DNA from: Candidatus Sumerlaeia bacterium
GTDB taxonomy: Bacteria; Sumerlaeota; Sumerlaeia; SLMS01; JAHLLQ01
Assembly: GCA_028284075.1 (NCBI GenBank)
Contig: JANQSL010000171.1
Coordinates: 26,378-90,377 of the forward strand
Direction of reading: 5' to 3'
Length of the DNA: 64,000 bases
Position numbers and translations under genes: made by a program. Below are positions 1 through 23,302 of the stretch, one piece after another. Each line of letters starts with the position of its first letter. The stretch's first letter is position 1. The notes under the pieces were generated by a model. The model did no database searches. It was not told where the DNA came from and worked only from the letters and a program-made list of their open reading frames with translations.

Positions 1-729
1 CCCCGAATTGCCGGCAAAGACTCCCGCGGCGGCGTTCGGATCGCTGTCTGCAAACTCGAAGTCATCGATCTGGACAACCGTGCCACCGCCTCCGAGTTCC
101 TCGAATTCCAGTTTGTCGAGGAAGATGCTCTGAGCCGAGCCCATTGAGTCTCCGTCCGAGTCCTGGAAAATAATCTGGACGGCGTTCACCTGCTGGAGAA
201 TTCCGTCCACAACAGTGCTGTTGTTAAAATACGCAATGGGATGGTCGATGGTGTATGATGAACCCGCCAGAGCTGAATCCGTGAAATTGATGAACTGAAA
301 CTGATCGCCATCATTGTCAAAAATCCGCACCCAGATGTTCGTGCCACTTGCTCCAAGGCCAAAGTCGGGATGTCCCTTGATATCCAGACGGACGGCAAAG
401 TCCGCCGCCAGATCCGCGTCGGCGATGGGCGTGGTTAATATGTAGGGCGACGAGAGAAAGCGCTCGACCGTTACCGCATCGAAAGCCGTTCCGGTAAATT
501 GAATGTCGTTTCGCAGAGAAAACGAACCTTCAGACGCGTCTCCGCCGGAGCCTGATCCTGCTGCAATAGTGGCTGTGGTGCCCGCAAAAACCGTGGTGCC
601 GGTCTGTGCAGCGGTGTCATCCGTCGCAAACTCAAAATCCTCCACAACTGTCTGAGCGGAGACTCCGGCAATTGCCAGAGCAAATCCGAGTAAGCCGGTT
701 GTGGTTTTGGTCACTAAATTCGTTTTCAT
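1..729 (-). CDS. Secreted acidic beta-sandwich (CBM11-like) protein; partial, runs off the left edge
   Basis: Not in the ORF track because it has no stop in the window. AGGAGG RBS, then ATG at 729: MKTNLVTKTTTGLLGFALAIAGVSA|QTVVEDFEF...ASEGSFSL...IFLDKLEF...VVQIDDFEF. Signal peptide and repeated (V/I)(E/D)DFE motif resemble the 11880..13082 product. Confidence 0.8.
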   Translation of the reverse strand, partial: MKTNLVTKTTTGLLGFALAIAGVSAQTVVEDFEFATDDTAAQTGTTVFAGTTATIAAGSGSGGDASEGSFSLRNDIQFTGTAFDAVTVERFLSSPYILTTPIADADLAADFAVRLDIKGHPDFGLGASGTNIWVRIFDNDGDQFQFINFTDSALAGSSYTIDHPIAYFNNSTVVDGILQQVNAVQIIFQDSDGDSMGSAQSIFLDKLEFEELGGGGTVVQIDDFEFADSDPNAAAGVFAGNSG

Positions 730-784
730 GACTGCATGGCCTCCTGTGTCGGTTGTTGCCTGATGCGGTTGGAGTGGTTTGCTC

Positions 785-1450
785 TTACTGAAATCCGTTC
801 CTGCCGGCATTGCCCGGTCCGAACAGGGTGACATCCCCTGAGCTGATTGTGCCGTTTGTGGGATCGTACGGAAAGCTGGAGTTCTGAGCCCGGTCCGGGC
901 CGAGGCTGCGGAGTTCCCAGAAAACAGATTCCGTTGCGTTGACATTGAGCGCTCCGTTCGCCGTCGTGGGATCAATGCGGAGGGCATTCACGCGATAGTC
1001 CGTCACAAGCCAGCCCCATGTCAGGACGCTGTTGCCGATTCCAGGGAATCCTCCGGGCCGCGACGACGCGTAGAAGTAGTTTGGCGTATAGGGCTGAATG
1101 AATGTCCCGGACCCTCCCGATGCGGCGGTTTCAGGCGCAAAAATATCCACAGGGAGCGACGTCATGTAGGAGACGGGGCTTGTGATTCGCCGGGTTCCCG
1201 GTACCCCCACCGTGATACCGTCGCTCAGTCCGTCCCCATAGGGATAGTTGTTATAGTCGACACGGTAGCTCTCCAGAGCTGTTGCCATGCTTCGCATGTC
1301 AGCCTTCGTGCGAGAAACCTTCGAGCGTGTCTGGGCCTCCAGAAAATTCGGAACCGCGATTGCGGCCAGAATAGCGATGATGGCCACGACGATCAGCAGC
1401 TCGATGAGTGTGAAGCCCCTTGAAGGACTTCGGGAAAGGATTTGTGTCAT
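785..1450 (-). CDS. Type IV pilin / GspG-like pseudopilin with prepilin cleavage-methylation motif
   Basis: RG|FTLIELLIVVAIIAILAAIAVPNF; C-terminal SLGPDR and YDPTNGTISSGD motifs. Confidence 0.9.
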   Translation of the reverse strand: MTQILSRSPSRGFTLIELLIVVAIIAILAAIAVPNFLEAQTRSKVSRTKADMRSMATALESYRVDYNNYPYGDGLSDGITVGVPGTRRITSPVSYMTSLPVDIFAPETAASGGSGTFIQPYTPNYFYASSRPGGFPGIGNSVLTWGWLVTDYRVNALRIDPTTANGALNVNATESVFWELRSLGPDRAQNSSFPYDPTNGTISSGDVTLFGPGNAGRNGFQ

Positions 1451-8724: not shown

Positions 8725-11685
8725 CTAGCCGTTTCCTGCGACGATCAGGCGGACGCCTTTCGGTCCGACGACCCTGCCAGGAGGTTCTTTTTCAAGAAAA
8801 AGCCGCAGTGTCGGTGTCTCCTCTTCAGTTGTAAACGTGGCTGACGCATTGCCCCACAGTGTGCGAATTCCTGAGAAGCCACATCCAATCCGGTACCACT
8901 CCATGGGAATTCCGGCTCCAACGACCAGTGAGTCGTCGAGTTCATAAACAAACATATCAGCAATCGCGTGAATGAGCCCCGATCCGATCCATGTGTGCGG
9001 CATGTCGCCGATATAGTTCGGTGATCGATAGCCCGGATGGGTAACCTCTCCCATGTGGTTCCAGCCTGCAGGCCGTACGGCATCGTCCAGAAAGTACTCC
9101 AGCAAGGCCATCGCCCGCTCCGGCTGATCGAGCCGCAGATATGCGGCAACGTTTCGAAGTTCATAGGCGGTGTATGATGAGGGCTTGTCGATACGACGCT
9201 CTTCGCAGCTCCGCCAGTATCGCTCGTACGTTCCTTTAAGGAGTTTTGGTGGAAGTGTTTCCGATTCGTGTCCAATCATCAACGCGATCGATGTGGCACT
9301 CGGATCGGGATCGCCAAGATCCGCTGTTGCAGGAAGAAAAGTCAGGTCCTTTTCCTTAGCCACCATGTTCATGGAGCGAATCATTGCCTGGCGCAGCTCC
9401 GACGCTTCTCTCCGCAGTTCCAGGGCGCGTTCAGGAAGTCCGAGGGCCCTCGCAATTGCCGCTCCGTCTTCAAGGCCGATGATCCCCCACATGTTGTCCC
9501 AGTGGCTGTGTCGCGCGGGGAAGTATCCTTCGTGGCTGTTGGACTCAGGAAGTATGCCCTCAAATTCGGTGCCTGCGTATTCAGTCGTCAAACGCTCGCG
9601 CCTCAACCGCATCATATAATCCAGGGCCCGGTCAACTTTCGGCCACACTGCACCGGCAAGGGCCCAGTCTCCCGTCGCAGCTGCATAGTAACGAACCGCG
9701 TGGGCGAGTTGGCCGAATGAATCGTGTTCTTTCCAGTCGTGGGTGTAGTCGGGCATTTCCCCCGTCGTCGGCTTAAGAATGAACGGCACAAATCCATTAT
9801 CGTGAACATTGTCGGAGAACCATTCGAGATAGTCTCGTACCGGCGTGGTCAGACCGAACCGTACCATCGATGTGCTGCTAATGGAACCGTCACGAATCCA
9901 GGCAAGTTCGTAGTTGCGGCTGCCGGGCTGGATTGCCGGACCGTCCGCGTTCAAGAGGAGATAGGCAAGATTCGAGCGAATCAGATTCTCCCAACGCCTG
10001 TCTGGAACTTCGATTTCCCAGTTTTCCGTTTCTTTTCGCCAGAACACGGTCATGAATGCCTTGGCGTCTTCAAAGAATTCCGATGGATTATCGGGTAACA
10101 GGGAGGTGTCCTTCTCCATCGGGCACGAGAGATACACTGAAGCGGATTCATCGGCCGCCAGCCGGAACTCATAAAGGTAGCCTGCACTGAGTATTCCGTT
10201 TTCAAAATCCGGAGTGTCTGCTTCAGCGTCACGCTGCAGAAGACCAAATGTCGGTATCTCACTCTGCCCCTGCAGGACGGCCTGTTCCGGGGCGGGGCTC
10301 GGAAACAAAACATCTCGATCCTCCACTCGCAGAACACCGCTTTCGTCGAGGGAAGCTGAAGCGACATGAGAAGTTCCCCCGTATTGCCAGGGTGGTGAAA
10401 TCTGCAATGACCGCGTAGCCAGCATCAGGCTGATGCTCCGGGTTTTCGGACCGGAATTAAGGATTGTATAACGCACATGGGAGTTATTGAGCGCGTCCAC
10501 AAGCAACGTTACTTCCAATTCAATATTGTCGCTTGTCCAGGTCACGGAAGGAATGGGGGCCCAGTCCTCGACAAGATGTTGCTCAGTCCGGAAGTCGAAT
10601 GCCGTTTTGAAAGTTCCGTCAATTGTCAGGGCGGGCGTTACCGTAAGGGTTTTGGGAAGCAATTCGACGTTGCCATATTCATCGATCAGAGCCTCTTCAA
10701 ACCTCTGAGGCAGTCCGGCAATTGTCCAGTAAACCTGTTCCTGTGAAAGCCAGCGCGGGAAGGCTCCATCCGGAGATTCTGCTGCCAGGCTTTCAAAGTG
10801 GCGCTGAGGATTCCAGGCAGCGTTGGCGTTGAGGAGGGTTAGTTCGGCAACCTCGGGAATACGAGTCGGATCCAGAAATCTCACAAGGATTTCCCCCACC
10901 TGCTGTGCGTCAAAAAAGATCTCATCGGGGTTGGCGGTTCCGAATGCCTGCCCCACGGAAATCCACTCATCGTTTGGCGTGGCGCGAATCGAAAGACTCC
11001 AGGAGGAACGATCTCCGTCTCCCCACAGCAACGCAACTCCTCCGCTCTCGACTGGTTCCGGCAGTGAAACGACGATTTCCGTTCCACTTGTTTTATTCTC
11101 AGGGCGCCAGAACGTTTCAGAATCGCCGTCCATCAGGTTTTCCGGAGCATGTCCGGGGGCGGAGGTCGTGGCCGAGAAATCGCGCCGATACTCCTCACCA
11201 AGCGGGACCGCTTCGTAGACGGAATATCCCCATCCCGTACCGCGCCGGACTCCCTGTAGCTTGATGTAGCGTCCCGATTTTGGACCAAAATAGATTGTCT
11301 CGGTTCCTCCGCGGCCGTCGCGGCGAATCGCGGCAGTCTGCCAGTTTTCGCCGTCACCGCTGAGCAGGATATCATAATCGCGCCCGTAGGCGGTCTCCCA
11401 GTGGATGCGCAGGCCGACCAGCTCTTCTGTCTCTCCAAGGTCCAGAGTGAGCCATTGTCTGTCGTCAAATTCGCTGGACCATCGGGTGGACATGTTTCCA
11501 TCGACTGCCATCATGGCTCCAAGGGCCTGCTCCTGGGGGTTACTGCTGGTGGCTGTAATTGTGGCAGTCAGCGCTGGTATCGGTATGAGAAGAGCACCTG
11601 ATATCGTGCCGAAGATCTTTGATATCAGCCATCCAGCAGCAATTTGTGGAAGCCTTTTCATTTCTTGATGGGAAATCGGAAGCAT
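8725..11685 (-). CDS. Discoidin (F5/8 type C, CBM32-like) domains plus (alpha/alpha)6 six-hairpin glycosidase-like domain
   Basis: AVDGNMSTRWSS...QWLTLDLG...GYSVYE; second LMDGDSETFW repeat; QPGSRNYELAWIRDG, ESNSHEGY, HWDNMW. Start may be ATG 11661. Confidence 0.8.
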   Translation of the reverse strand: MLPISHQEMKRLPQIAAGWLISKIFGTISGALLIPIPALTATITATSSNPQEQALGAMMAVDGNMSTRWSSEFDDRQWLTLDLGETEELVGLRIHWETAYGRDYDILLSGDGENWQTAAIRRDGRGGTETIYFGPKSGRYIKLQGVRRGTGWGYSVYEAVPLGEEYRRDFSATTSAPGHAPENLMDGDSETFWRPENKTSGTEIVVSLPEPVESGGVALLWGDGDRSSWSLSIRATPNDEWISVGQAFGTANPDEIFFDAQQVGEILVRFLDPTRIPEVAELTLLNANAAWNPQRHFESLAAESPDGAFPRWLSQEQVYWTIAGLPQRFEEALIDEYGNVELLPKTLTVTPALTIDGTFKTAFDFRTEQHLVEDWAPIPSVTWTSDNIELEVTLLVDALNNSHVRYTILNSGPKTRSISLMLATRSLQISPPWQYGGTSHVASASLDESGVLRVEDRDVLFPSPAPEQAVLQGQSEIPTFGLLQRDAEADTPDFENGILSAGYLYEFRLAADESASVYLSCPMEKDTSLLPDNPSEFFEDAKAFMTVFWRKETENWEIEVPDRRWENLIRSNLAYLLLNADGPAIQPGSRNYELAWIRDGSISSTSMVRFGLTTPVRDYLEWFSDNVHDNGFVPFILKPTTGEMPDYTHDWKEHDSFGQLAHAVRYYAAATGDWALAGAVWPKVDRALDYMMRLRRERLTTEYAGTEFEGILPESNSHEGYFPARHSHWDNMWGIIGLEDGAAIARALGLPERALELRREASELRQAMIRSMNMVAKEKDLTFLPATADLGDPDPSATSIALMIGHESETLPPKLLKGTYERYWRSCEERRIDKPSSYTAYELRNVAAYLRLDQPERAMALLEYFLDDAVRPAGWNHMGEVTHPGYRSPNYIGDMPHTWIGSGLIHAIADMFVYELDDSLVVGAGIPMEWYRIGCGFSGIRTLWGNASATFTTEEETPTLRLFLEKEPPGRVVGPKGVRLIVAGNG

Positions 11686-11814: not shown

Positions 11815-11828
11815 TGAAAGCGCTTACA
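11815..11828. promoter_or_regulatory. LacI-family operator
   Basis: TGAAAGCGCTTACA, a near-palindrome with central CG, in the divergent intergenic region of an operon that encodes a LacI. Confidence 0.75.
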
Positions 11829-11879: not shown

Positions 11880-13082
11880 ATGAAGAGTTCTGTAACGGCG
11901 GGTTTCGGTTTCCTGACCCTTGCGGCCATGGCGATCACGTTGCCGCTGGAAGCCCAAACGACGATCGACAATTTTGAAAGCCATGACTGGGATTATTGGT
12001 TTGGAACCGTTGCAAATCCTCCTGCCAATGCATTCCAGCCGGCAGAGGGGTCTGCGGTGGAATACAGCACCGCCGTCTCTCAAAGTGGCCAGTCTTTGCT
12101 CATCAAGGAGACTTGGAGACGGGCCGGCGCCTGCGTGGATTGTGGAATCTCCGCGGTGAGAGCGGTCCGCAGTAACACTCTTGTTCAGATTCCCGTTGGA
12201 TCTGTTACCGGTGATGTTACTTTCGACGTTTACCTTGATGGGGCCAATTTCGGCGCCAATGATGATGGAGGAGGGATGCCGGTCTCCGTTCCGGGCATGA
12301 AGGTGGAGCTCGGCACGACAGCTGGAAATGCGTCCTCCGCCGAAGAGGCAATGACATACCAGGGTTGGAAAACCTACACTGTGGCTCAGGGTGATATTTC
12401 CGGTGACGTCAATGAGCTTCGGTTCATTTTTGTCATGGACTTTCCATTCGGATCGGCTCAGTCGGATGGCGACTGGTCAATCTACGTGGATGACATGCGA
12501 ATCAATGGTGTGTTGGTTGACGGCTTTGAACGCACACCGGTCTACGGTTCTGAAGTCGAAGCGTCGGGGGTCGGTTTTGAGCAGCCACCGGACCCCGCAC
12601 TGGCTGACCCCTTCTCAGCGACCGACAACGGAATCGGCAGTTCCATGGTTCCCACCCTCGCCGGAGGCCCGACGGCCAACGAGGGAAGTTTTGCCTATGT
12701 GTTGAACTGGAACACGGAAACCGATGGTACAGTGGGTATCACCGCGAATCATTCAAATGACGTTCGGGATGTGTCAGCGGCAGGGAGCATCAGTGTTGAT
12801 GTCTATGTTCCCTCACCGCAGAGTATTCCGACTTTCAGTCTGAATCTGGCCGACTCATCCGGTGGGACGGAGTCGTTTGCCGGCACGGCCGTCTCGTCAA
12901 CCGATGCATGGGAAACCGTCATCTTTAATCTTGCAGGGCTCAGTACTGTCGACCCGGGCGACATTCAGCTCATCAATGTCACTGCCACCAGTGCCGGAAC
13001 CGACGGAACTCTCTACTTTGACAACATGGTTGCCGCGGGAAGCGTCGTCTCAGAAGTGCGTGACTGGCAGGCCTACGAATAA
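11880..13082 (+). CDS. Secreted two-domain CBM-like protein with C-terminal SEVRDWQAYE tail
   Basis: GGAGG RBS; LEA|QTTIDNFE; two beta-sandwich repeats ending IYVDDMRI and LYFDNMVA; no catalytic motif recognised. Confidence 0.75.
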   Translation: MKSSVTAGFGFLTLAAMAITLPLEAQTTIDNFESHDWDYWFGTVANPPANAFQPAEGSAVEYSTAVSQSGQSLLIKETWRRAGACVDCGISAVRAVRSNTLVQIPVGSVTGDVTFDVYLDGANFGANDDGGGMPVSVPGMKVELGTTAGNASSAEEAMTYQGWKTYTVAQGDISGDVNELRFIFVMDFPFGSAQSDGDWSIYVDDMRINGVLVDGFERTPVYGSEVEASGVGFEQPPDPALADPFSATDNGIGSSMVPTLAGGPTANEGSFAYVLNWNTETDGTVGITANHSNDVRDVSAAGSISVDVYVPSPQSIPTFSLNLADSSGGTESFAGTAVSSTDAWETVIFNLAGLSTVDPGDIQLINVTATSAGTDGTLYFDNMVAAGSVVSEVRDWQAYE

Positions 13083-13116
13083 CTGACAAACCGACCGCGG
13101 CGGAAGAGAACAGGCA

Positions 13117-15390
13117 ATGAAGGTAACGGGTGAGTCTGAAAGGAATCGAATGATTTCCAAAGTTCGTTTATTCCTGTTTCTCACCGTTGCCTTTGTTCCC
13201 GGACTTCTTTCGGCCGAGAGTGAAGAAATCACTGTCTGGGCAATGGGGGAGGAGGGTAACCGGATTTCGGTTCTTGCTCAAGCGTTCGAAAGTGAAAACC
13301 CTGGTGTCAGAGTTGTTACTCAGGCCATTCCCTGGAACGGTGCGCATGACAGACTGCTTACTGCAGTGGCAGGAGGACTGACACCGGATGTCGTCCAACT
13401 CGGAACAACCTGGATTCCGGAGTTCGCTGAAATCGATGCATTACTGCCACTCGATTCGTTGATCGGGGAAGGCGAAATCGGTGCAGAGCGTTTCTATCCC
13501 GGATCATGGAAAACGGCCCTTTATGATGACAGGGTCGTTTCCATTCCCTGGTACGTTGACACACGTGTTTACTTCTATCGGTCTGACCTTCTGGAAGATG
13601 CCGGGATCGGAGAGTTTCCCCGCACATGGCAAGGCCTGGAAGAGCTCGGGGAGGCTCTGACACGTGATGTGGATGGAGACGGAACCTTCGACAACCATGC
13701 CTACGATCTGCTTGCCCGCGACTATGGTCTCTCAGTGGCACTGTTCCGACAGGCGGGCGCTTCGATTTTCGGGCCGGATGGAAAAAGCTCTGTTGCATCC
13801 GTCGAAGGCATTGAGAGTTTGAGTTTTTTCCGTTCACTGGTGAGTCGCGGTTATGCACCGGGACCGTCCGGAAGGCAGATTGATCCGATTCAGGACCTGC
13901 GGACGGGGTATGTGGCGAGCTGGATATCAGGTCCGTGGATGGTTGAACTTCTGCGTACCCAGGCGCCTGATCTCAATGGCAAATGGATGGTTGCCGGGAT
14001 GCCGCGGGGGAGGCATGAGTCATCGTTTCTTGGCGGTTGCAATTTGGCGGTCTTCCGAAACTCAACCCGTCCGAATCTGGCACAAAGGTTTGTCGTCTTC
14101 TGTTCCCGACCGGACATTCAGCAATTGTGGTTCTCCGCGACAGGTAATTTGCCTGCGGTGCGCGATGCGTGGAACGCTGAAGAACTTGAGAATGATCCGA
14201 TTTGGCGGGTTTTCAAGAATCAACTCGAATCAGCGGAACCTCCGCCGCCTCTTGTCTCATGGGCCGCAATGGAAAGCGCGATCGAGAATTCCGTTGAAGA
14301 TATGGTGATCAATGAACGCAACCCGGCGGAAACGGCGCGTGAACTGGCTTCAAGACTGGATTCACTTTATCCGAAAGGCCGTCGCGGCAAGGGTAACCTC
14401 TCTGGCCATGGCACGTTGGTGTTGGGAGGGTTCTTCGTCTTTTTTGCGGTGATTGTCGCTTTGTGGGTTCTTGCTCCGGCTCTGCTTGACAGAACATCGA
14501 GCTGGAGACGAGTCGGAGTTTCAGCGATGTTTCTCGCACCGGCAGCACTACACTTGATTGTGTTCATGCTGGTGCCATTGATGATCTCCCTCGCACTCAG
14601 CTTCACGAACTATGACATTTACTCCATTGGCGATTGGAGAACGACATCCTTTGTTGGTTTCGAAAACTACCAAAGGCTTGTCGGAGATGCTCGTTTCTGG
14701 ACGTCGTTTCTCAATACCGTCTATTTCCTTGCTGTGGCGGGGCCATTAACCATTATTGCGGCACTCACGGCAGCGATTATTCTCAATCGAAGGTTTTCAT
14801 CACGGGTTCGGACATTCTTTCGTTCGTCTCTTTTTCTTCCGGTGGTTACTCCTCTTGTCGCGGTGGCGGTTGTATGGAGGTGGCTTCTTGCACCGCAGAG
14901 CGGCCTGATCAATCTCGGACTGGAATGGATCGGCATCGAAGGGCGTGCGTGGCTGACGGATCCGGTTTGGGCAATGCCATCGTTGATTTTGATGGCGGTG
15001 TGGAAAAACGCCGGCTACAGTATGGTGATTTTCCTCGCCGGACTCCAGACGATTCCCCGCACCTTTTATGAGGCGGCTGAGGTCGATGGCGCCGGACCGA
15101 TGCGTCGCTTCGTCAGCATCACTATTCCGCTTTTACGCCCCACTCTCCTCTTCGTCGTTGTCGTGACAACGATAGGTTACATGCAGCTCTTCGCCGAACC
15201 GTATGTCATGACGGCGGGTGGTGGACCGAGCGACCGGACACTATCGATCGTTCTGTATCTTTATCAGGAAGGCTTCAAGTTTTTCAATCTCGGCTATGCT
15301 TCGGCCGTTGCTTACACACTCTGTCTTGTCGTGGCGGTCGTGAGCTTCCTCCAGATGATTCTCGCGGGTTCCCGCGAAGGGAGAATATAA
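13117..15390 (+). CDS. Fused sugar ABC transporter solute-binding protein and MalF-like permease
   Basis: SBP part WAMGEEG...PDVVQLGTTW...IPWYVDTR, in frame with permease FVGFENY...LAGLQTIP..YEAAEVDGA (EAA loop). Start may be 13150. Confidence 0.9.
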   Translation: MKVTGESERNRMISKVRLFLFLTVAFVPGLLSAESEEITVWAMGEEGNRISVLAQAFESENPGVRVVTQAIPWNGAHDRLLTAVAGGLTPDVVQLGTTWIPEFAEIDALLPLDSLIGEGEIGAERFYPGSWKTALYDDRVVSIPWYVDTRVYFYRSDLLEDAGIGEFPRTWQGLEELGEALTRDVDGDGTFDNHAYDLLARDYGLSVALFRQAGASIFGPDGKSSVASVEGIESLSFFRSLVSRGYAPGPSGRQIDPIQDLRTGYVASWISGPWMVELLRTQAPDLNGKWMVAGMPRGRHESSFLGGCNLAVFRNSTRPNLAQRFVVFCSRPDIQQLWFSATGNLPAVRDAWNAEELENDPIWRVFKNQLESAEPPPPLVSWAAMESAIENSVEDMVINERNPAETARELASRLDSLYPKGRRGKGNLSGHGTLVLGGFFVFFAVIVALWVLAPALLDRTSSWRRVGVSAMFLAPAALHLIVFMLVPLMISLALSFTNYDIYSIGDWRTTSFVGFENYQRLVGDARFWTSFLNTVYFLAVAGPLTIIAALTAAIILNRRFSSRVRTFFRSSLFLPVVTPLVAVAVVWRWLLAPQSGLINLGLEWIGIEGRAWLTDPVWAMPSLILMAVWKNAGYSMVIFLAGLQTIPRTFYEAAEVDGAGPMRRFVSITIPLLRPTLLFVVVVTTIGYMQLFAEPYVMTAGGGPSDRTLSIVLYLYQEGFKFFNLGYASAVAYTLCLVVAVVSFLQMILAGSREGRI

Positions 15391-15395
15391 ACGCG

Positions 15396-16301
15396 ATGGC
15401 TGGTGCAGGAATTCGTTTTTCTCCAACGGCTGAGATCGACGGCAGGAAGGGCACTTTACAACAAGTGCCGAGTGCCCGGGGCAGAGGGTTTGTCCGCTCG
15501 ATTCCTGGCCTGCTGTTTCTTCTTCTCGCGGCCGGGGCGGCACTGATCCCTTTTTTGTGGATGATCAGCACCGCTTTCAAGCGGCCGGAAGTCATCTATC
15601 AGATTCCTCCTGTTTGGATTCCAGTCGAGCCGACTCTGCGTCATTTTCAAAACCTTTTCGGACAACTGTCCTTTGCAAGGAACCTCTTCAATTCCACCGT
15701 GGTCACCTTCGGAATCACGGCACTCAGTCTTCTGTTGAACTCAATGGCAGGGTACGCATTCGCCAAACACCGGTTTCCCGGAATGGAGAGATTGTTCGGA
15801 GTCTTTCTGATCACACTGATGGTTCCCGCACAAGTTACGGCGATACCCGTGTTTCTGCTGCTCAAGAAGCTGGGTTTGCTCAATACTCTGGCGGGACTGA
15901 TTATTCCTGCAGCCTCCTCGGTTTTTGGAATTTTTCTCATGCGACAGTTCATGACTTCGATCCCCGATGCACTGATCGAGTCGGGCCGGGTCGACGGTTG
16001 CAGGGAATGGGGCATCTTCTGGTCAATTGTGCTGCCGCAATGCCGCCCCGCGCTTGCGGCACTCGGCATCTTCACATTTCTTGCCGCTTGGTCTGACTTT
16101 TTCTTTCCTTTGATCGTTCTGTTTGATCAGCGAAAGTACACCCTGCCCGTCGCTCTCGCGACACTCAATGGTCAGCACACAACAGACTGGGGAATGTTAA
16201 TGGCCGGTTCACTGGTAGTCATTACTCCCATCGTTCTGCTGTTCATCGCACTTCAACGCAAATTCGTGGAGGGCATCGCTCTCACGGGATTGAAAGGATA
16301 A
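15396..16301 (+). CDS. Carbohydrate ABC transporter permease (MalG-like)
   Basis: PFLWMISTAFK, AGYAFAK, IPDALIESGRVDG (EAA loop), LQRKFVEGI..G.KG. Confidence 0.93.
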   Translation: MAGAGIRFSPTAEIDGRKGTLQQVPSARGRGFVRSIPGLLFLLLAAGAALIPFLWMISTAFKRPEVIYQIPPVWIPVEPTLRHFQNLFGQLSFARNLFNSTVVTFGITALSLLLNSMAGYAFAKHRFPGMERLFGVFLITLMVPAQVTAIPVFLLLKKLGLLNTLAGLIIPAASSVFGIFLMRQFMTSIPDALIESGRVDGCREWGIFWSIVLPQCRPALAALGIFTFLAAWSDFFFPLIVLFDQRKYTLPVALATLNGQHTTDWGMLMAGSLVVITPIVLLFIALQRKFVEGIALTGLKG

Positions 16302-16304
16302 GCA

Positions 16305-18794
16305 ATGCACCGTCATTCTTCAAACGGAGCAAACTCACGACTTTTTGAAACAGAGTACGGTTATTTTGATGTTCGGAATGATTCTTATGTCATCAAGCGC
16401 CCTGACACTCCGCGTCCGTGGGTGAATGTCGTGGCGAACGAACGCTATGGCACGGTAATCAGTCAGGCTGGAGGAGGATTTTCCTGGATCGATCATTCAA
16501 CGCTTTCGGTTCTGACACGCTGGCGTCAGGACCTGGTGCGGGACGACTGGGGAAAGTGGCTGTACATACGCGACGATGAAAGCGGAAATCTTTGGAGTGC
16601 GGCTCCTCAGCCCGTACTTTCCCCATATGATTCCTATGAATGCCGTCACGGGCTTGGTTATAGTGTGTTGTCAGCACGGATTCATGGCATACAGAGCGAA
16701 TGGACAATTGTGGTTCCTCCCGATGCAACATTCGAACTCTGGTATCTCAGGCTCACGAATCTCGATAACAAAGTACGCAACCTGACTGCATGCTCACACT
16801 TTATGTGGAATCTCGGTGCCGCCCCCGACAATCACAGGGAGTTCCATCGGCTCTTTCTTCACAACGACTTCGATAAACAAGCTGGCATTATCCGCGCAAA
16901 CAAGGTTTTGTGGGAAGTTCCCACAGAGAAGCACGGTCATTGGAACACACACTATCCCTATGCGGCTTTCCATGCAGTCTGGAATGAGGCGGGGGAAGCA
17001 CCCGCCACACTCTTCGCATGTGGCGATCACGAGTCATTCACTGGTCGCCATGGGACATGGAAGGCGCCGAGATGGCTGAGTGAGCAAGGTGGGCGGGAAA
17101 CCACCGGATTTGGGCGACACGGCGACGCAATTGCGGCGCTGGCATCCGGCGTTACTCTCGAGCCGGGAGAAACACGGGAGTTGGCATTCGCCCTTGGGGC
17201 TGTTCTCGAGCACGAGCCGGACGTTCAGACGGCGCTCGCTCCCTATCGAACACAGGACAGTCGTCACAGGGTTCTTGAAAGTGTCAGGGTTTTCTGGCAT
17301 GATCGCCGGGAGGGGGTGCAGGTTGAAACGCCTGACGATGCATTCAATCTGCTCGTGAACACCTGGACTCCTTATCAGGCAATGGCGGGAAGGGTTTTTG
17401 GTCGCACCGGCTATTGGCAACAGTCCGGTGCCTACGGTTTCCGCGATCAACTGCAGGACAGCCATGTCTTTCTGCCCTGTGATCCGGAGAGAATGAAATC
17501 AACGCTGCTTCTTCATGCCCATCATCAGTTTGCAAACGGAACTGTCTATCATTGGTGGCACCCTCTTTCCGAAGTGGGTCTGCAAACGGAAATGACCGAC
17601 GATCTTCTGTGGCTTGCTTTCATGACGACCGCCTATCTGAAGGAGACCGGTGACTGGGCCGTTTTGGCGGAAGAAGCTCCGTTTGTTGATTGTCAGAAAC
17701 CGGCTCCGCTCTTCGAACACTGCCGACTTGCAATCACAAAGGTTCTTGAACGCTTTAGTGACCGAGGTCTTCCCCTGATTGGGGCCGGTGACTGGAACGA
17801 TGGCATGAGCGCCTGCGGTCTCTCGTGGAGAGGTGAATCAGTGTGGCTGGGCCACTTTCTCCACGCTGTGCTTGCAGACTGGGTTCGAATTGCCCGTTAC
17901 GAAAACAAGGAGTCGTTGGCGGAGGAGTGGGAGAAGCGGCGGGCGGCTTTACAAGACGCTCTGAATACCGTTGGATGGGATGGTGCCTGGTACTGGCGTG
18001 CTTCGCTGGATGATGGTTCGCTTCTGGGCAGCTCCCGGCGCCGTGAGGGTCGTATTTTTCTCAATGCGCAGACGTGGTCGGTTCTTGCGGGCGTTGCCGA
18101 TGATGATCGTTCAGCTCTTGTCATGGATGCGGTGGAGGAGTATCTCCTGCATGATTTTGGCCCCTCTCTCTTTTCTCCCGCATACCGCAGCCCGGATCCC
18201 CGGATTGGTTATCTGACCCGGTACACTCCCGGCGTGCGGGAAAACGGTGGCGTTTACAGCCATGCCGCAATGTGGGCAATCCAGGCGGCTTGCCGTGTGA
18301 AACGTCCGCAGCTTGCATGGAAAATGTTTTCACGCCTCGCTCCACCGTTTCGTGGAATGAATCCAGAACATTACTGCGTCGAACCGTACGTCATGCCGGG
18401 AAATGTCGATGGGCCGGATTCACCACATTATGGACGTGGCGGATGGTCATGGTACACAGGATCCGCTGCATGGATGCGCCGTATAAGTCTTGAAGCCATT
18501 CTTGGCGTTCAGCCCGGCTGGGATGGTTTGAAAATTGAGCCGTGTTTGCCGCCCCACTGGCCGGAAGCAAGGCTTCACCGGCGGTACCGGGGAGATCTCC
18601 TCGATATCACGATTCGGAATCCCGATCTCTGCGGGTGCGGAGCGGTGCAGATCATCGTTGATGGCGAGGAGCTTGAGCCGGGTCGAAGCATAACTTCTTC
18701 CGGCAGTGGACAAACAAGACGGATTGAAGTCTGCGTGCGTGCCACCGAAGCAACGGCGGTCGGAGCGGGCAGCAACGAAGGGAAAATGTTGTGA
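16305..18794 (+). CDS. GH94 glycoside phosphorylase
   Basis: TPRPWVN, QQSGAYGFRDQLQD, GAGDWNDG (catalytic Asp), RENGGVYSH, GRGGWSWYTGSAAW. Confidence 0.93.
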   Translation: MHRHSSNGANSRLFETEYGYFDVRNDSYVIKRPDTPRPWVNVVANERYGTVISQAGGGFSWIDHSTLSVLTRWRQDLVRDDWGKWLYIRDDESGNLWSAAPQPVLSPYDSYECRHGLGYSVLSARIHGIQSEWTIVVPPDATFELWYLRLTNLDNKVRNLTACSHFMWNLGAAPDNHREFHRLFLHNDFDKQAGIIRANKVLWEVPTEKHGHWNTHYPYAAFHAVWNEAGEAPATLFACGDHESFTGRHGTWKAPRWLSEQGGRETTGFGRHGDAIAALASGVTLEPGETRELAFALGAVLEHEPDVQTALAPYRTQDSRHRVLESVRVFWHDRREGVQVETPDDAFNLLVNTWTPYQAMAGRVFGRTGYWQQSGAYGFRDQLQDSHVFLPCDPERMKSTLLLHAHHQFANGTVYHWWHPLSEVGLQTEMTDDLLWLAFMTTAYLKETGDWAVLAEEAPFVDCQKPAPLFEHCRLAITKVLERFSDRGLPLIGAGDWNDGMSACGLSWRGESVWLGHFLHAVLADWVRIARYENKESLAEEWEKRRAALQDALNTVGWDGAWYWRASLDDGSLLGSSRRREGRIFLNAQTWSVLAGVADDDRSALVMDAVEEYLLHDFGPSLFSPAYRSPDPRIGYLTRYTPGVRENGGVYSHAAMWAIQAACRVKRPQLAWKMFSRLAPPFRGMNPEHYCVEPYVMPGNVDGPDSPHYGRGGWSWYTGSAAWMRRISLEAILGVQPGWDGLKIEPCLPPHWPEARLHRRYRGDLLDITIRNPDLCGCGAVQIIVDGEELEPGRSITSSGSGQTRRIEVCVRATEATAVGAGSNEGKML

Positions 18795-19912
18795 GTAAAA
18801 AGAAAACCACGGAAACAAACGGTCAGCCACGAGCCAAAAGCGGAGCATCAATTTTCGATGTGGCGGCCCGAGCCGGTGTCTCAATAGCAACCGTTTCTCG
18901 TGTCATCAATGGACGAAACCGCGTTGCGCCAGAGACGATACGAAAGGTCGAGGCTGCGATGCATGCACTCCAGTTTCGACCTAACCGGCAGGCTCGCGCC
19001 CTGACGTTGCGCAAGACAGACACAATCGGTCTGGTTCTTCCGGATCTTTACGGGGAGTTCTACGGTGAACTGATGCGTGGTGTCGATCAGGCGGCGCGCG
19101 AGGCGGGAGTGCACGTTCTGATCACAAGGGCTGTCAGTCCCGAGGAAGAACGTGCCACAGTGGAGGAACTCCTGCAGGGAGGCGCTGTCGATGGATTGAT
19201 TTTTCTGGTGTCGCAATTCGAGGACAACGCACTTTCGGATCTGGCACGTTTTCAGGATTCGCTTCTCATTCTGGACCGCGATGTGGGGAACATCGAACTG
19301 GATAACGTGTTGGTTGATAATCGCGATGCCGGTCGTGAGGCAACTCTCCATCTGATTCGAGATGCCGGAGCAGAGAGTCTTGCTTTCATTGGAGGGCCGG
19401 AAGGCAATGTGGACACCGACAATCGGCTCGCGGGGTTTCGGGATGCCTGCCATGAATTGGGAATCGATTCCTCTCCCGAACATATTCACTACAGTGATTA
19501 TTCGTATGAGATGGGTCTCGCCATCGGTGAGTCCTATTCTTCTCTGATTGAAGACGATGGCGGACGCTGGGGGTTCATCGCCGCGAATGACAATCTCGCC
19601 CGTGGCGTTATGGAAGCACTTGTTACCAAAGGCGCGGCCATTCCGCACGATGCCGCAATCATCGGATTCGATGATACGGAACTCGCTCGTGTCGTGCGTC
19701 CCCGGCTGACCTCAATGCGCGTGCCTCTTCAGGAGATCGGACGGACATGCGTTCGATTGCTTGTCGATCGCCTCAGAGGTCTCCGTACCGAACCCGCAAA
19801 GATGGTCTTCAAGGCGAGGCTCGCGCAGCGTGCATCGACCACCATTGACAGTGACCCTCTACAAAACACTCAGGAGAATGAAAATGCATCGTCCTCACAG
19901 GAACAGAACTGA
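18791..19912 (+). CDS. LacI-family transcriptional regulator
   Basis: SIFDVAARAGVSIATVSRVIN HTH; PNRQARAL hinge; IIGFDD; PRLTSM. GTG start overlaps the GH94 stop. Confidence 0.95.
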   Translation: MSKKKTTETNGQPRAKSGASIFDVAARAGVSIATVSRVINGRNRVAPETIRKVEAAMHALQFRPNRQARALTLRKTDTIGLVLPDLYGEFYGELMRGVDQAAREAGVHVLITRAVSPEEERATVEELLQGGAVDGLIFLVSQFEDNALSDLARFQDSLLILDRDVGNIELDNVLVDNRDAGREATLHLIRDAGAESLAFIGGPEGNVDTDNRLAGFRDACHELGIDSSPEHIHYSDYSYEMGLAIGESYSSLIEDDGGRWGFIAANDNLARGVMEALVTKGAAIPHDAAIIGFDDTELARVVRPRLTSMRVPLQEIGRTCVRLLVDRLRGLRTEPAKMVFKARLAQRASTTIDSDPLQNTQENENASSSQEQN

Positions 19913-20540
19913 AGAACGCGCTTTTACACTCATCGAATTGTTGATCGTTGTTGCAATCATAGCAATTCTTGCGGCGATAGCCGTTCCGAATTTCCTCGAG
20001 GCGCAGACACGCAGTAAAGTCAGCCGCGTCAAGGCGGACATGCGCTCTATTGCAACAGCGGTTGAAGCCTACTCCATCGACAATAACAGCTATCCTCTTT
20101 CACAGGAGCTTCTGTCGACCTATCCGAACAGCCCATTTAATACTGCCTTTTTCGGATTTGGATTCATGGCGTATGCCGGCCGCCTTTCAACACCGATTTC
20201 CTATATCACGCAAGTTCCTCGCGACATCTTCAACGAGGGAAACGCTCCCAATCGTCCGGACGGTTTTTCCTTCTTTGAGTATTGGTCCGAGGAAGACAAT
20301 CTCATATTCGGGATCAACGATATTAATGGCTACCGCCGGGAGTTCCTTCCGGACTCGACTCGTTATCTCCTCTGGTCCTGGGGACCCGATCGAGTCGCAT
20401 TCGACCCCACTTTACCGGTAGGGCTTCTACAGGACCAGGTGACAATCTACAATTACTACGATCCAACCAATGGCACCGTCAGTTATGGTAACATCCTTCG
20501 CCCTGGCCCCGGCGGTGGACTCAAGCAGGGGTCAACCTGA
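19884..20540 (+). CDS. Type IV pilin / GspG-like pseudopilin, paralog of 785..1450
   Basis: RA|FTLIELLIVVAIIAILAAIAVPNF; SWGPDR; YDPTNGTVSYGN. AGGAG RBS at 19872; overlaps the LacI end and the next start (TGATG). Confidence 0.9.
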   Translation: MHRPHRNRTEERAFTLIELLIVVAIIAILAAIAVPNFLEAQTRSKVSRVKADMRSIATAVEAYSIDNNSYPLSQELLSTYPNSPFNTAFFGFGFMAYAGRLSTPISYITQVPRDIFNEGNAPNRPDGFSFFEYWSEEDNLIFGINDINGYRREFLPDSTRYLLWSWGPDRVAFDPTLPVGLLQDQVTIYNYYDPTNGTVSYGNILRPGPGGGLKQGST

Positions 20541-21931
20541 TGAGACTTCTGCTTTGTGGACTGATTGTCTCTTCGGCAGCAACAGGCTGGAGCCAGGAAC
20601 TTCAAACGTCTGTCACGAGAGATCATCCTGTTTCCCATCAGGAAATCTCTCCCCAGGACGATGAGCTTCTTGAGGAGATCTCGTATGCCAGCTTTCGGTT
20701 TTTCGTGGATGAGGCAAATCCCTCCACAGCCCTGGTGCCCGATAATGTGCAAAATCCCAACATCAGCAGCATTGCGGCTCAGGGTTATGCATTTTCGGCC
20801 TGGGTTATTGGTGCTGAACGCGGATGGATCGCCCACGGTGAGGCTGAAGCGCTGTCGCTGAAGGCTCTCGGCACACTTGAGAGTACCGATGCCACGCGCT
20901 ATGGGATGTTCGCCCATTTCCTTGATACGCGAACCGGTCAGATTTCCGAGGAGGGATACGAGAGTGGAGCGTCGACAATCGACAGCGCACTCCTTGCTGC
21001 CGGAATGCTGACGGCCGGCGAGTACTTCGGTGGTGAAGTCAAAGCGCGGGCGGACCAGTTGTTTGCTGATATGGACTGGGCGGCGTTCCGCGATCCCGAC
21101 AAGAACAACCAGGTGAGGATGCTTTGGAATCCGGCGGATCCTCACGACTTTTCCGCAGGCGGAGAGTTCGCACAGCCAACGTGGGACTGGTATACTGATG
21201 AAACGCTTCTGATTGTGCTGCTGGGAATATCAGCCCCTGATCCTGGCAAACGGCTCGATCCCGGAGAAGCCATGACCAACTGGAATCGGCCTGTTGGTTC
21301 GTATGGGCAGCACAGTTACATTTACTCCTGGCCGGGTACTCTTTTCACGTACACCTTTGCGCAGTGCTATTTTGACTTCCGCATTCTCGGTGAAGACGTT
21401 CTCGGAGTAAACTGGTGGGAAAACACGTTGTCCGCCGTCAGGGCAAATCGCGACTGGTGCAGGGACAACGCAGGCAGCTATACAACCTACGGACCGAACA
21501 GGTGGGGGGTTACCGCCTGCAGTGGTCCGCAGTTTACTTACGTGGTTCCAGGTCATCAGCCCCGCGGACCGCAGGGCGATGATCCTGCGGGGGGAACCCT
21601 CGCGCCCTATGGTGCCGGTATGGCGGTGCTTTGGGAACCCGCGGATGCGATCGCGGCACTTCGACACATGAAATCCTTCGTTGTTGGAGGGGCTGATGTC
21701 TGGGTATCGGTCGATAGCGGCGGCTATGGTTTCAGAGACGCCTTCAATATCGATGAGAACTGGGCCTCTCCCGATATACTCGGTATCGCTCAGGGGCCTA
21801 TGCTGCTTTGTATTGAAAACCTTCGGAGTGAGCTCCTTTTCAGGACGCTTATCCGGAACCAGCACATTCGCCACGGATTGAAATCCGCCGGCTTTGATGT
21901 TCCCTGTCTCGACAGCTGGCGTATTGAGTAA
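20540..21931 (+). CDS. Secreted 'glycoamylase' / GH144-like (endo-beta-1,2-glucanase family) protein
   Basis: SSIAAQG, STIDSALL, YTDE, LFTYTF, WGVTAC.GP, YGFRDAFN, LGIAQGPMLL.IEN; signal peptide. Confidence 0.82.
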   Translation: MRLLLCGLIVSSAATGWSQELQTSVTRDHPVSHQEISPQDDELLEEISYASFRFFVDEANPSTALVPDNVQNPNISSIAAQGYAFSAWVIGAERGWIAHGEAEALSLKALGTLESTDATRYGMFAHFLDTRTGQISEEGYESGASTIDSALLAAGMLTAGEYFGGEVKARADQLFADMDWAAFRDPDKNNQVRMLWNPADPHDFSAGGEFAQPTWDWYTDETLLIVLLGISAPDPGKRLDPGEAMTNWNRPVGSYGQHSYIYSWPGTLFTYTFAQCYFDFRILGEDVLGVNWWENTLSAVRANRDWCRDNAGSYTTYGPNRWGVTACSGPQFTYVVPGHQPRGPQGDDPAGGTLAPYGAGMAVLWEPADAIAALRHMKSFVVGGADVWVSVDSGGYGFRDAFNIDENWASPDILGIAQGPMLLCIENLRSELLFRTLIRNQHIRHGLKSAGFDVPCLDSWRIE

Positions 21932-21952
21932 ACCTTCAGGAGATCCCAATCG

Positions 21953-23302
21953 ATGCTCAAATATCGCTTTCCGGACGGCTTTACATGGGGAGTTTCTTCT
22001 TCCAGCTATCAAATCGAAGGAGCGGCGTCCCAGGATGGGCGTGGGCCTTCCATATGGGATTCGTTTTGTCGCGAGCCGAATCGGATTGCACGAGACGAGA
22101 ACGGAAGTGTCGCCTGTGATCACTACAATCGCATGGAAAGCGACATCGAGCTGATTGCGAAAACGATCAATGCGAATGCCTATCGATTCTCCATTGCCTG
22201 GCCGCGCGTCCTCCCCGAAGGGGAGGGACACGTCAACCCCGCCGGTATCGGCTTCTATGATCGTCTTGTGGACAAATTGCTGGAACAGGGAATCAAACCC
22301 GTTTGCACCTGCTATCACTGGGATCTGCCGCTGGCGCTTCAGAAAAAACACGGTGGATGGCAGTCGAGGCGAGTGGCGGAGCTTTTTGCAGAGTACTGTG
22401 AAATACTGGGAACACACCTTGGCGACAGAGTTGACACATGGTGTACTCTTAATGAACCGGAAGTTGTACTGACGGCTGGATATCGAACCGGCGTTCATGC
22501 ACCCGGACTCATGCTTGATGAAAAGGGGGTTCGGCAGGTTACACATCATCTGCTGCTTGCCCACGGGCTTGGCACACAGGCGTTGCGAAAATCCATTACC
22601 AGACAGGGTGCACGAATCGGACTCGTTCACAACAGCACCAGTTATTCGCCACTGACCGAGTCTGCAGAGGACATCTCGGCAACCCGCGAGGTTTTTCATT
22701 GCGAAAACAGCTGGTTGCTAAGTCCGGTGTCTCATGGTGTTTACCCTGCGGAGCTATGGCGAGAGCTCGATAAGAATGTTCCCGAGACTGAAGACGGAGA
22801 TCTCGCGGTCATTGCCACCTCGACCGACTACCTGGGTATTAATACATACTTCTCCACGGCCATGGTGTCGGGAGAAAGAGGCGAGATCCCGTTCGAGAAG
22901 CATTATCCCCGAACCCTTATGAACTGGCCTGTGACACCGGATACGCTCTATTGGACAACACGGTTTGTTCACGAGCTCTACGGAGGGAAGAAACCGTTGA
23001 TGATTACGGAGAGTGGTTCGGCCTGGCCCGACAAGCCGCAGAGCGACAATGGAACCTCCGTCGTCAACGATCTCGCGAGAATCGTATACCTGCGAGAGCA
23101 CCTTAAGGGAATCCACCGCGCAATCGAGGAAGGCCTTCCTTTGGAAGGATACTTTGTCTGGTCGATTATGGATAATTTCGAATGGAGTGCCGGGTACGAG
23201 AAGCGGTTTGGTTTGATTTACATCGACTACGAAAATCAGAAACGAATCCCTAAAGCGAGTGCGGAATGGTACCGCAACGTTATCAAATGGAATGGATTCT
23301 GA
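21953..23302 (+). CDS. GH1 beta-glucosidase
   Basis: FPDGFTWG..SSSYQIEG, YRFSIAWPR, TLNEP (acid/base), ITESG (nucleophile), DNFEW..GY.KRFGL. Confidence 0.95.
   Translation: MLKYRFPDGFTWGVSSSSYQIEGAASQDGRGPSIWDSFCREPNRIARDENGSVACDHYNRMESDIELIAKTINANAYRFSIAWPRVLPEGEGHVNPAGIGFYDRLVDKLLEQGIKPVCTCYHWDLPLALQKKHGGWQSRRVAELFAEYCEILGTHLGDRVDTWCTLNEPEVVLTAGYRTGVHAPGLMLDEKGVRQVTHHLLLAHGLGTQALRKSITRQGARIGLVHNSTSYSPLTESAEDISATREVFHCENSWLLSPVSHGVYPAELWRELDKNVPETEDGDLAVIATSTDYLGINTYFSTAMVSGERGEIPFEKHYPRTLMNWPVTPDTLYWTTRFVHELYGGKKPLMITESGSAWPDKPQSDNGTSVVNDLARIVYLREHLKGIHRAIEEGLPLEGYFVWSIMDNFEWSAGYEKRFGLIYIDYENQKRIPKASAEWYRNVIKWNGF

Follow-up and report, generated by a model that had tools for sequence, protein, structure and literature searches.

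The stretch examined here, hereafter the window, comprises 64,000 nucleotides (C161:26378-90377) of a draft genome of Candidatus Sumerlaeia bacterium, phylum Sumerlaeota (assembly G000; 4.9 Mb, 275 contigs, 90% complete). At positions 11880-23302 it holds an operon of eight genes on one strand, and among them lies a gene for a type IV pilin-like protein, flanked by genes for a LacI-family repressor and a secreted glycanase. An earlier interpretation made from the letters alone (the sequence-only reading) had listed a secreted protein resembling a carbohydrate-binding module (CBM), a solute-binding protein (SBP) fused to a permease, a second permease, a glycoside hydrolase family 94 (GH94) enzyme, LacI, the pilin, a GH144-like enzyme and a GH1 enzyme, and Pfam and NCBIfam matches bore out this order and content. 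As predicted from its genes, the region is a LacI-repressed operon for the utilization of beta-1,2-glucan (sophoro-oligosaccharides) in a Sumerlaeota bacterium, and the embedded pilin is, judging from the sequences compared below, a genuine member of this beta-1,2-glucan system, inherited and regulated together with it. The features are collected in Table 1.

Table 1. Operon, regulatory element, and related features of the window.
Feature	Position	Strand	Evidence or remark
Secreted protein next to second pilin, 5' part of 752-aa protein	1..987	-	Directly after second pilin; tag SSVTDWQLLEY outside window
Second pilin paralog	785..1450	-	N_methyl 38.4 bits, T2SSG 24.3 bits; in 44-paralog set
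Divergent 986-aa secreted protein	8725..11685	-	F5_F8_type_C 5e-30; CBM32/discoidin domains; weak six-hairpin glycosidase-like region
LacI-type operator TGAAAGCGCTTACA	11815..11828	.	Between 986-aa gene and operon (divergent region); LacI/CcpA-type palindrome
Secreted protein with two beta-sandwich (CBM-fold) domains	11880..13082	+	Sec signal peptide in translation; tag SEVRDWQAYE
ATP-binding cassette (ABC) importer, solute-binding domain fused to first permease, 757 aa	13117..15390	+	SBP_bac_1 2e-33, BPD_transp_1 1.5e-18
Second ABC permease	15396..16301	+	BPD_transp_1 2.3e-16
Cytoplasmic GH94 glycoside phosphorylase, 829 aa	16305..18794	+	Glyco_hydro_94 376 bits
LacI-family repressor	18791..19912	+	LacI helix-turn-helix and Peripla_BP_3; one of 7 LacI genes in assembly
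GspG-like type IV filament subunit (operon pilin), 220 aa	19878..20540	+	N_methyl 31.6 bits, T2SSG 24.2 bits, TIGR02532
Secreted GH144-type endo-beta-1,2-glucanase candidate	20540..21931	+	PF10091 151 bits (cut-off 27); signal peptide in translation
Cytoplasmic GH1 beta-glucosidase	21953..23302	+	TIGR03356 529 bits (cut-off 478.5)
Two PilT genes	23601-26194	opposite to operon	Convergent to operon

The genes of the operon are tightly packed, with intergenic distances of -35 to +34 nt overall and of -4 to 34 nt at the junctions other than the pilin overlaps. The pilin had been described as overlapping both of its neighbors, and a base-by-base check agreed. The pilin gene starts at ATG 19878, preceded by AGGAG and 35 nt ahead of the LacI stop codon (19910-19912), which gives an overlap of 35 nt, and its TGA (20538-20540) has one base in common with the GH144 start codon (ATG 20540-20542), an overlap of 1 nt. 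Compared with shuffled sequence, there was no excess inside the operon of promoter-like sites (8 versus 6.5 expected) or of terminator-like sites (10 versus 12.9 expected). The palindrome TGAAAGCGCTTACA that had been proposed as the operator fits the LacI/CcpA type and proved to be the only exact copy in the 4.9-Mb assembly; 15 other matches with up to two mismatches all fall within open reading frames (ORFs). This element at 11815 places the true start of the first gene at ATG 11880, as the earlier interpretation had assumed. The regulator combines an HTH_LacI domain with a periplasmic-binding-like domain and a palindromic operator, the last predicted from sequence, which identifies it as a LacI-type repressor.

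The enzymes of the operon point to its putative substrate. The PF10091 protein aligns end to end (residues 39-457) with the endo-beta-1,2-glucanase 5gzh (8e-31), and further beta-1,2-glucanases align as well; 5z06 and 8xul are also among its solved relatives. Domain and similarity to characterized members both place it, at the sequence level, in GH144. The GH94 protein has the supersandwich domain (PF06165, 223 bits) and the catalytic (alpha/alpha)6 domain (PF17167, 376 bits), and it scores higher against the beta-1,2-glucan-acting GH94 domain of Cgs (489 bits) than against cellobiose phosphorylases (399 bits), so that it probably acts on beta-1,2-gluco-oligosaccharides. Loci for beta-1,2-glucan or sophoro-oligosaccharides described in the accessible text of three papers contain GH144, a GH94 phosphorylase, a beta-glucosidase, and an ABC importer (PMC12102758, PMC5309861, PMC12369401), and GH1 enzymes are tied to beta-1,2-glucan in the available part of one of them (PMC12369401). 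The predicted activities of GH94, GH144, GH1, and the ABC importer match the logic of these published loci. As far as those excerpts go, the enzyme families are the same, as is the route from an extracellular endo-glucanase through ABC import to cytoplasmic phosphorolysis and hydrolysis. The Sumerlaeota locus differs in that its GH94 is nearest to the Cgs GH94 domain and not to the long SOGP type, and it has three additional components, namely, the SBP-permease fusion, a CBM-fold protein with a C-terminal tag, and the pilin.

The SBP-permease starts with a Sec-type signal peptide (...LFLFLTVAFVPGLLSA, followed by ES) and has orthologs with 47 to 51% identity in three relatives (G011, G002, and G006). 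Such one-polypeptide fusions are unusual in diderms, whose binding proteins are as a rule free periplasmic proteins. The fusion is recurrent in the assembly and its relatives, with further cases at G000:C153:1688-2569 (a 785-aa frame) and L042 8947-10993.

The operon pilin has a leader, MKMHRPHRNRTEERA, followed by FTLIELL..., contains no cysteine, and ends near the motif YDPTNGTVSYGNI. The junction of TEERA with FTLIELLIVVAIIAILAAIAVPNF, with F at +1 and E at +5, is that of a class III signal peptide, and the profile scores lie above the cut-offs for N_methyl (31.6 bits; cut-off, 21.2) and TIGR02532 (30.5 bits; cut-off, 16.3). In an AlphaFold2 (AF2) model with a mean predicted local distance difference test score (pLDDT) of 77, a helix (residues 18-69) is joined to a loop-rich head with strands at 134-137, 163-167, and 205-209, the helix-plus-beta-head arrangement of type IV filament subunits. 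Foldseek searches with this model retrieved only pilins and GspG or other major pseudopilins, all of them weakly (best E, 0.05), and no lectin or CBM fold was found among the matches of the head. Two more specific assignments were rejected. As a true GspG (TIGR01710), the protein reached 55 bits against a cut-off of 88.85, and its neighbors are LacI and GH144 with no gsp genes; membership in DUF1559 (PF07596) or H-X9-DG (TIGR04294) gave no match at an E value of <=0.01 for either pilin of the window. Cysteine is absent from 36 of 54 aligned pilin heads.

Next, the position of the pilin was compared among relatives. Its four best relatives (53 to 62% identity) are found in G020, G011, G002, and G006, and in all three relatives in which the beta-1,2-glucan locus can be judged (G002, G011, and G006) the pilin ortholog lies within that locus despite rearranged gene order. 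In G011, the pilin heads an operon of pilin, GH94, LacI, GH144, and GH1, from which the SBP-permease and permease genes diverge. The order in G002 is SBP-permease, permease, GH94, LacI, pilin, a GH2_C-type TIM-barrel lipoprotein, and a GH144 fusion; LacI and pilin again overlap, and a 29%-identical homolog of the operon's first gene is divergent. G006 shows pilin, GH144, and GH1 up to the contig end. Operator-like palindromes occur at the equivalent promoter regions, twice as TGAAAACGTTTTCA in G002 and as TAAAACCGATTTTA and TAAAACCGTTTTCT in G011, there immediately upstream of the pilin gene. GH144 orthologs are present in 5/25 genomes of the order. Both queries were run against 20 relatives; of these, 3/3 that have GH144 and 1/17 that lack it gave a pilin match above 150 bits, the exception being G020. 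In a quick tree, the pilins of this locus form a clade (SH-like approximate likelihood ratio test [SH-aLRT], 91). The pilin had been read as a co-regulated member of a glycan locus, and its orthologs in the same locus of these three relatives, with LacI-type operators upstream, uphold that proposal.

The operon pilin belongs to a large family. A motif search of the assembly, based on an N-terminal FTLIELLIVVAIIAILAAIAVPNFLEAQ... and on YDPTNGT(V)SxGDI near the C terminus, yielded 44 pilin paralogs, which have a near-identical N-terminal helix and differing heads. A profile built from these 44 added one strong member (~45 in all) and, apart from the main family, 23 weaker pilin-like ORFs. Each of the 21 genomes searched in the order (21/21) has 29 to 59 pilin-family matches, and the nearest ESM-Atlas clusters are mostly from Sumerlaeota, one of them with 2,984 members. 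A quick tree is star-like, with old paralogs, and the pilins of sugar loci are not clustered on it (7 changes versus 8.5 with shuffled labels). Therefore, different old orthogroups were fixed, each in a different locus. Tandem triplets of paralogs, unlike the single embedded copies, were seen at G000:C66:20227-22674 and, in G020, at L038 1491-3542.

To describe the surroundings of the paralogs, Pfam annotation was applied to 205 genes, up to three on either side of the 44 paralogs. About 8 paralogs are in sugar contexts. These are the pilin of the present operon and those of an alpha-glucan locus (amylase with CBM48, pilin, X25 protein, and amylase), a ROK, galactokinase-like, and ABC locus, a GH5, Mann_GBD, and ABC locus, one paralog followed by GH38, one adjoining a GHL10 protein, and two adjoining LacI genes. 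Approximately 35 of the 45 paralogs lie elsewhere, next to unrelated genes (AspRS, TyrRS, RuvX, MutL, GAPDH/TIM, catalase, an RND pump, BlaR1/BlaI, two-component systems, and peptidases), and the family is therefore not glycan-specific. In this assembly, 3/7 LacI genes have a paralog within 2 kb (0.28 under the null; p=0.002), and a fourth has one within 8 kb (null, 0.73). Likewise, 5/12 SBP_bac_1 genes have a paralog at most 10 kb away (null, 1.5; p=0.009), and for LacI and SBP_bac_1 genes taken together, the count within 10 kb is 9/19 (null, 2.2). In five more contiguous relatives, whose LacI loci are partly orthologous and hence not independent, LacI genes were found within 2 kb of a paralog in 6/28 cases (0.87 expected; p=2e-4) and within 5 kb in 9/28 (2.0 expected). 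Paralogs are thus enriched near LacI and sugar-SBP genes, and their tie to sugar regulators is strong even though the family as a whole is not glycan-specific. The sugar-locus pilins also tend to keep their neighbors. Orthologs of the alpha-glucan locus pilin have the same amylase or X25 protein alongside in 9/11 relatives, and neighbors are kept by the ROK/ABC locus pilin in 4/6 relatives and by the GH5/ABC locus pilin in 2/2.

These neighborhoods bear on the possibility that the pilins have no specific glycan role and are dispersed, variable surface subunits serving adhesion, phage evasion, or motility, some of which entered sugar operons by chance and stay there because rearrangement is slow. 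The unrelated surroundings of most paralogs and their old, star-like tree would fit this explanation, as would G020, where the closest homolog of the operon pilin sits in another context, the tandem triplet at L038 1491-3542 next to a Ser/Thr kinase. However, the pilin stays in the locus while gene order shifts between genera and families, translational overlap with neighboring genes occurs in two genera, the enrichment near LacI genes seen in this assembly recurred in five relatives, and four sugar loci each keep their own orthogroup. We consider an absence of any glycan role quite improbable, and the data suggest a link between pilus-like filaments and sugar use in this lineage.

The enrichment near SBP_bac_1 genes would also be compatible with a helper function for ABC uptake, in which short pseudopili, similarly to a bindosome, organize the membrane-tethered binding domain or give access to it. 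The fusion of the binding domain to the permease, which makes it non-diffusible, fits this view, and so does the Sulfolobus bindosome, in which, according to the available portion of the report, type IV-like assembly is coupled to sugar-binding proteins (PMC3047682). Nevertheless, the binding domain starts with a Sec signal peptide and not with a class III one, the signature of the archaeal type; the pilin orthologs adjoin secreted enzymes or regulators, and not the SBP gene, in 3/4 locus versions; and many paralogs have no transporter nearby. We regard such a helper function as very improbable.

The first gene of the operon encodes a protein with no match to any Pfam or NCBIfam family and with only 2 relatives among 5.8e9 proteins. 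Its AF2 model is weak (pLDDT, 51), the C-terminal domain reaching 75 to 88, and the best structural matches of this weak model are CBMs, with Z scores of 9 to 11.4 (1wky, 11.4; CBM28, 10.8; a laminarin-binding CBM, 10.4). The protein is, from its modeled fold, a candidate surface glycan-binding protein. Its relative in G006 has 945 aa and matches SGBP_B_XBD (7.9e-11) and Dockerin_1 (1.7e-5) (L056 6532-9366, G006:C13); it is doubled, and a type I dockerin stands at its end instead of the tag.

This tag is a short C-terminal motif. Orthologs of the first-gene protein end in ...(A/S)V-x-D-W-x-x-(F/Y/I)-(E/D), which in the window corresponds to the tail at 13050-13082. A pilin paired with a similar CBM-like protein had been claimed to recur at 1..1450. 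The second pilin and the secreted protein next to it are indeed there, but similarity at the sequence level to the first-gene protein was rejected (BLASTP E=0.033, not significant); the 752-aa protein, which again matches no Pfam or NCBIfam family, has the C-terminal tag in common with it. The pairing of a pilin with a secreted, non-catalytic CBM-like protein does recur, in at least three other sugar loci. In the assembly, a narrow tag pattern ends 21 proteins versus 4.1 expected from shuffling. A wider pattern, [AS][AS]V-x-[DNE]-W-x-x-[FYLIMV]-[EDQRN]-COOH, which was adjusted after three pilin neighbors had been seen, ends 37 versus 2.75 expected (maximum, 7), and of these 37, a paralog is found within 500 bp for 7 (null, 0.76) and within 3 kb for 11 (null, 2.1; p<2e-4). 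With the narrow pattern, 4/21 lie within 3 kb. A signal peptide is present in nearly all tag bearers, and in no case is the motif followed by a membrane anchor. The CBM-like proteins of three sugar loci are among them, and the bearers include the 752-aa protein, the X25 protein of the alpha-glucan locus, and the Mann_GBD protein of the GH5 locus; among 9 tag-bearing proteins searched against NCBIfam, the only known sorting domain was choice_anch_X, on the X25 protein. In G002, two tagged genes lie 56 to 80 bp from a pilin. The tag may be a new sorting or docking signal, and we treat it as a lead, not as a result.

The sequence-only reading had gone further and proposed that, in place of TonB-dependent receptors (TBDRs), pilins with surface CBM proteins, perhaps driven by the adjacent PilT pair, may capture or import glycans or else export the enzymes that belong with them. 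A TBDR is indeed absent from the locus, and there is no SusC/SusD pair of the kind that defines a Bacteroidota-type polysaccharide utilization locus (PUL). The lack of a TBDR is, however, a trait of the whole lineage and says little about this locus: the assembly has 1 (contig C107), and genomes of the order have 0 or 1, with none in 20/25 and one in 5/25. A co-regulated TBDR elsewhere is not indicated by the operator, which is unique and has its 15 near-copies all in ORFs, the C107 receptor itself not having been checked for operators. To our knowledge, PULs based on SusC/D or TBDRs are the rule only in Bacteroidota and some Proteobacteria, so that the premise that diderm PULs normally rely on them was too wide. 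The PilT pair does not hold as part of the system either: it is convergent to the operon, it represents two of ~10 PilT-like genes, and tblastn with both proteins gave no match in the orthologous loci (L039-L041), the sole match being in a distant locus (L045). Overall, the inventory of type IV filament genes is very large for 4.9 Mb, with 9 secretins over the cut-off, 5 platform proteins, ~6 PilB/GspE-like ATPases, and ~10 PilT-like ATPases.

A glycan-capture pilus would nonetheless be compatible with part of these observations. The variable pilin head, either by itself or together with a docked, tagged CBM-fold protein, would bind beta-1,2-glucan. The subunit would be part of a retractile type IV pilus, whose PilT-driven retraction would draw the polymer to the cell surface or through a secretin and so replace capture by TBDRs or SusCD. 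The data on co-inheritance, co-regulation, and enrichment apply equally to this explanation. The contrast between 0 or 1 TBDR per genome and 29 to 59 pilin matches, the abundance of PilT-like ATPases, and the presence of tagged non-catalytic CBM-like proteins in four pilin-bearing sugar loci also speak for it, and precedents are offered, in the accessible text, by dextran-binding fibers of Planctomycetes (PMC5394234) and by a xylan-responsive pilus of Caldicellulosiruptor bescii (10.1101/614800). Against it stand the head model, with its matches to pilins and pseudopilins only; the equal aromatic content of sugar-locus and other heads (0.121 versus 0.121); the scatter of the sugar-locus pilins on the tree; the location of most paralogs outside glycan loci; the neighboring PilT pair, which is not syntenic in relatives; and the absence from most heads of the disulfide typical of type IVa pilins. 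Capture therefore seems somewhat unlikely to us.

Our preferred reading is that the pilin forms a filament for the export or display of the extracytoplasmic proteins of its own locus, to which we assign a probability of roughly 0.45. Export or display is ranked above capture because the subunit is GspG-like, is translationally coupled to a secreted enzyme, and has a head without a lectin-like fold; the data do not discriminate between these readings. Also in favor of export or display are the evidence for co-inheritance, the enrichment near LacI genes, the inventory of filament machinery, and the closeness of tag bearers to pilin paralogs. According to this proposal, the secreted GH144 endo-glucanase would cut the polymer outside the cytoplasmic membrane while the secreted CBM-fold protein binds it. 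The resulting oligosaccharides would be imported through the ABC importer with its fused binding domain, phosphorolyzed by GH94, and fully broken down with GH1. On induction, the locus-specific pilin would be built into a filament resembling a pilus or a type II secretion system (T2SS) pseudopilus that passes a secretin, an arrangement reminiscent of the maltose-induced pullulanase secreton, except that the subunit gene alone is located in the sugar operon. Since the helix is near-invariant, the ~45 subunits presumably feed common machines, with heads that differ, and the head of this pilin would serve the export and/or surface display of GH144 and of the tagged CBM-like protein. In a co-fold of residues 20-463 of GH144, 27-400 of the CBM-like protein, and 45-220 of the pilin (its head), run without controls, the scores were 0.27 and 0.03 against a mark of 0.32, a result that counts neither for nor against the proposal.

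Several observations weigh against this reading. A search for RNA runs covering 18791-21931 returned none, and one DNA run that does cover it may be the source sample. The assembly, 90% complete, yielded no prepilin peptidase; 1 to 3 matches to Peptidase_A24 (PF01478) occur in each of 20/20 relatives, and the absence is probably an assembly gap. We know of no use of alternative major pseudopilins for cargo recognition in classical T2SSs. In G011, the pilin does not adjoin GH144, and in G023, LacI adjoins GH144 with no pilin between them, although the contig ends within GH94 and the upstream part is unjudgeable. G020 (85% complete) has the closest pilin homolog, yet GH144 was undetected there. 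The ~35 of 45 paralogs outside sugar loci imply a wider or different role of the family, and the excess of paralogs with neighbors that have a signal-peptide-like start (28/44 versus 22.2 expected; p=0.05, by a crude heuristic) is marginal. As for the tag, the wider pattern was adjusted after the fact, as described above, and in G002 its link to pilins is only a trend (5/222 genes in 33 pilin-centered loci versus 2/282 in 20 background stretches).

A more general proposal, which we consider unlikely, is that of pilus-coupled PULs, in which each locus supplies its own subunit, inserted into common secretin/ATPase machines by means of the invariant helix, and a secreted glycan-binding protein, the tag (...SVxDWxxFE-COOH) being a previously undescribed sorting or docking signal for the filament. 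If true, such loci would perform substrate-specific surface capture and/or export in a diderm lineage nearly devoid of TBDRs, as a functional alternative to SusC/D. If pilin and tag form a secretion or display system, they would represent a new diderm route to polymers without TonB-dependent receptors, and the way in which glycan loci are recognized in such genomes would change.

Other genes of the window were also inspected. The divergent 986-aa protein has CBM32-like solved relatives and an ortholog (44% identity) in G006:C13, between the SBP-permease and the unk422-like/GH144 genes, with a weak Bac_rhamnosid6H match. Its gene probably belongs to the regulon of the operon, and the protein may represent an enzyme, so far unclassified, that acts on beta-1,2-glucan. 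A gene at 6844-8649 (+), located between the two regions with pilins, encodes a 601-aa protein with a Pect-lyase_RHGA_epim (pectate-lyase-like) domain, and an open frame of >2,033 aa at 57901-63999 (+) runs past the window end.

The Sumerlaeota literature available to us in part had nothing on pilins: PMC8092238 has only "type IV pilus-dependent twitching" and PMC10866078 gave no match. Neither pilin orthogroups as members of LacI-regulated operons in Sumerlaeota nor the C-terminal tag was found in print, and supplementary gene tables might list pilins. What is already known are sugar-regulated secretons, polysaccharide-linked pili, the archaeal bindosome, and large families of prepilin-like paralogs. 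No role is known for the large prepilin-like families of polysaccharide degraders that are uncultured or of the PVC type (Planctomycetes-Verrucomicrobia-Chlamydiae). The present analysis connects individual orthogroups with defined operons for beta-1,2-glucan, alpha-glucan, GH5/ABC, and ROK/ABC systems, for which the type of regulator is known and the substrate is predicted.

The pullulanase secreton of Klebsiella is a maltose-induced T2SS with the pseudopilin GspG/PulG. The operon pilin resembles GspG/PulG in its prepilin leader, F+1/E+5, and long hydrophobic helix, in its T2SSG match over the first 50 positions after the helix, and in that most heads of its family have no disulfide. As in the secreton, one sugar regulator governs both a filament subunit and a secreted enzyme that degrades a glycan. 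The differences are that the subunit gene stands in the sugar operon without the genes of the machine and with no gspC-M neighbors, that ~45 paralogs occur per genome, and that the head has ~175 aa versus ~100 in GspG.

The pili-like fibers of Planctomycetes, which bind labeled dextran (PMC5394234), and the pilus of C. bescii, whose expression is regulated in response to xylan (bioRxiv 10.1101/614800), are likewise pilus-like filaments that bind, or are induced by, a polysaccharide. As described in the accessible sections of these reports, they represent one pilus system or fibers of unknown make-up and not a separate subunit gene per catabolic operon. The Sulfolobus bindosome shares with our locus the tie between a type IV filament-type assembly and ABC sugar uptake (PMC3047682); in the portion of that report available, class III signal peptides are found on the sugar-binding proteins themselves, whereas in the present operon the binding domain follows a Sec signal within the same polypeptide as the permease, and the small pilin is a protein of its own.

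A parallel in family size is provided by PF07596 (DUF1559) and TIGR04294 (the H-X9-DG domain), which we take to be expanded prepilin-like families of the PVC group. They also comprise dozens of paralogs per genome with a near-identical prepilin N terminus and variable C-terminal parts, and their hosts are TBDR-poor, polysaccharide-degrading lineages rich in uncultured members. In the accessible text of literature naming DUF1559, no statement was found that pilin orthogroups are fixed in LacI-regulated sugar operons. The Sumerlaeota family differs from those of the PVC group in its conserved C-terminal motif, YDPTNGTxSxGDI, and in that its orthogroups are fixed parts of LacI-regulated sugar operons.

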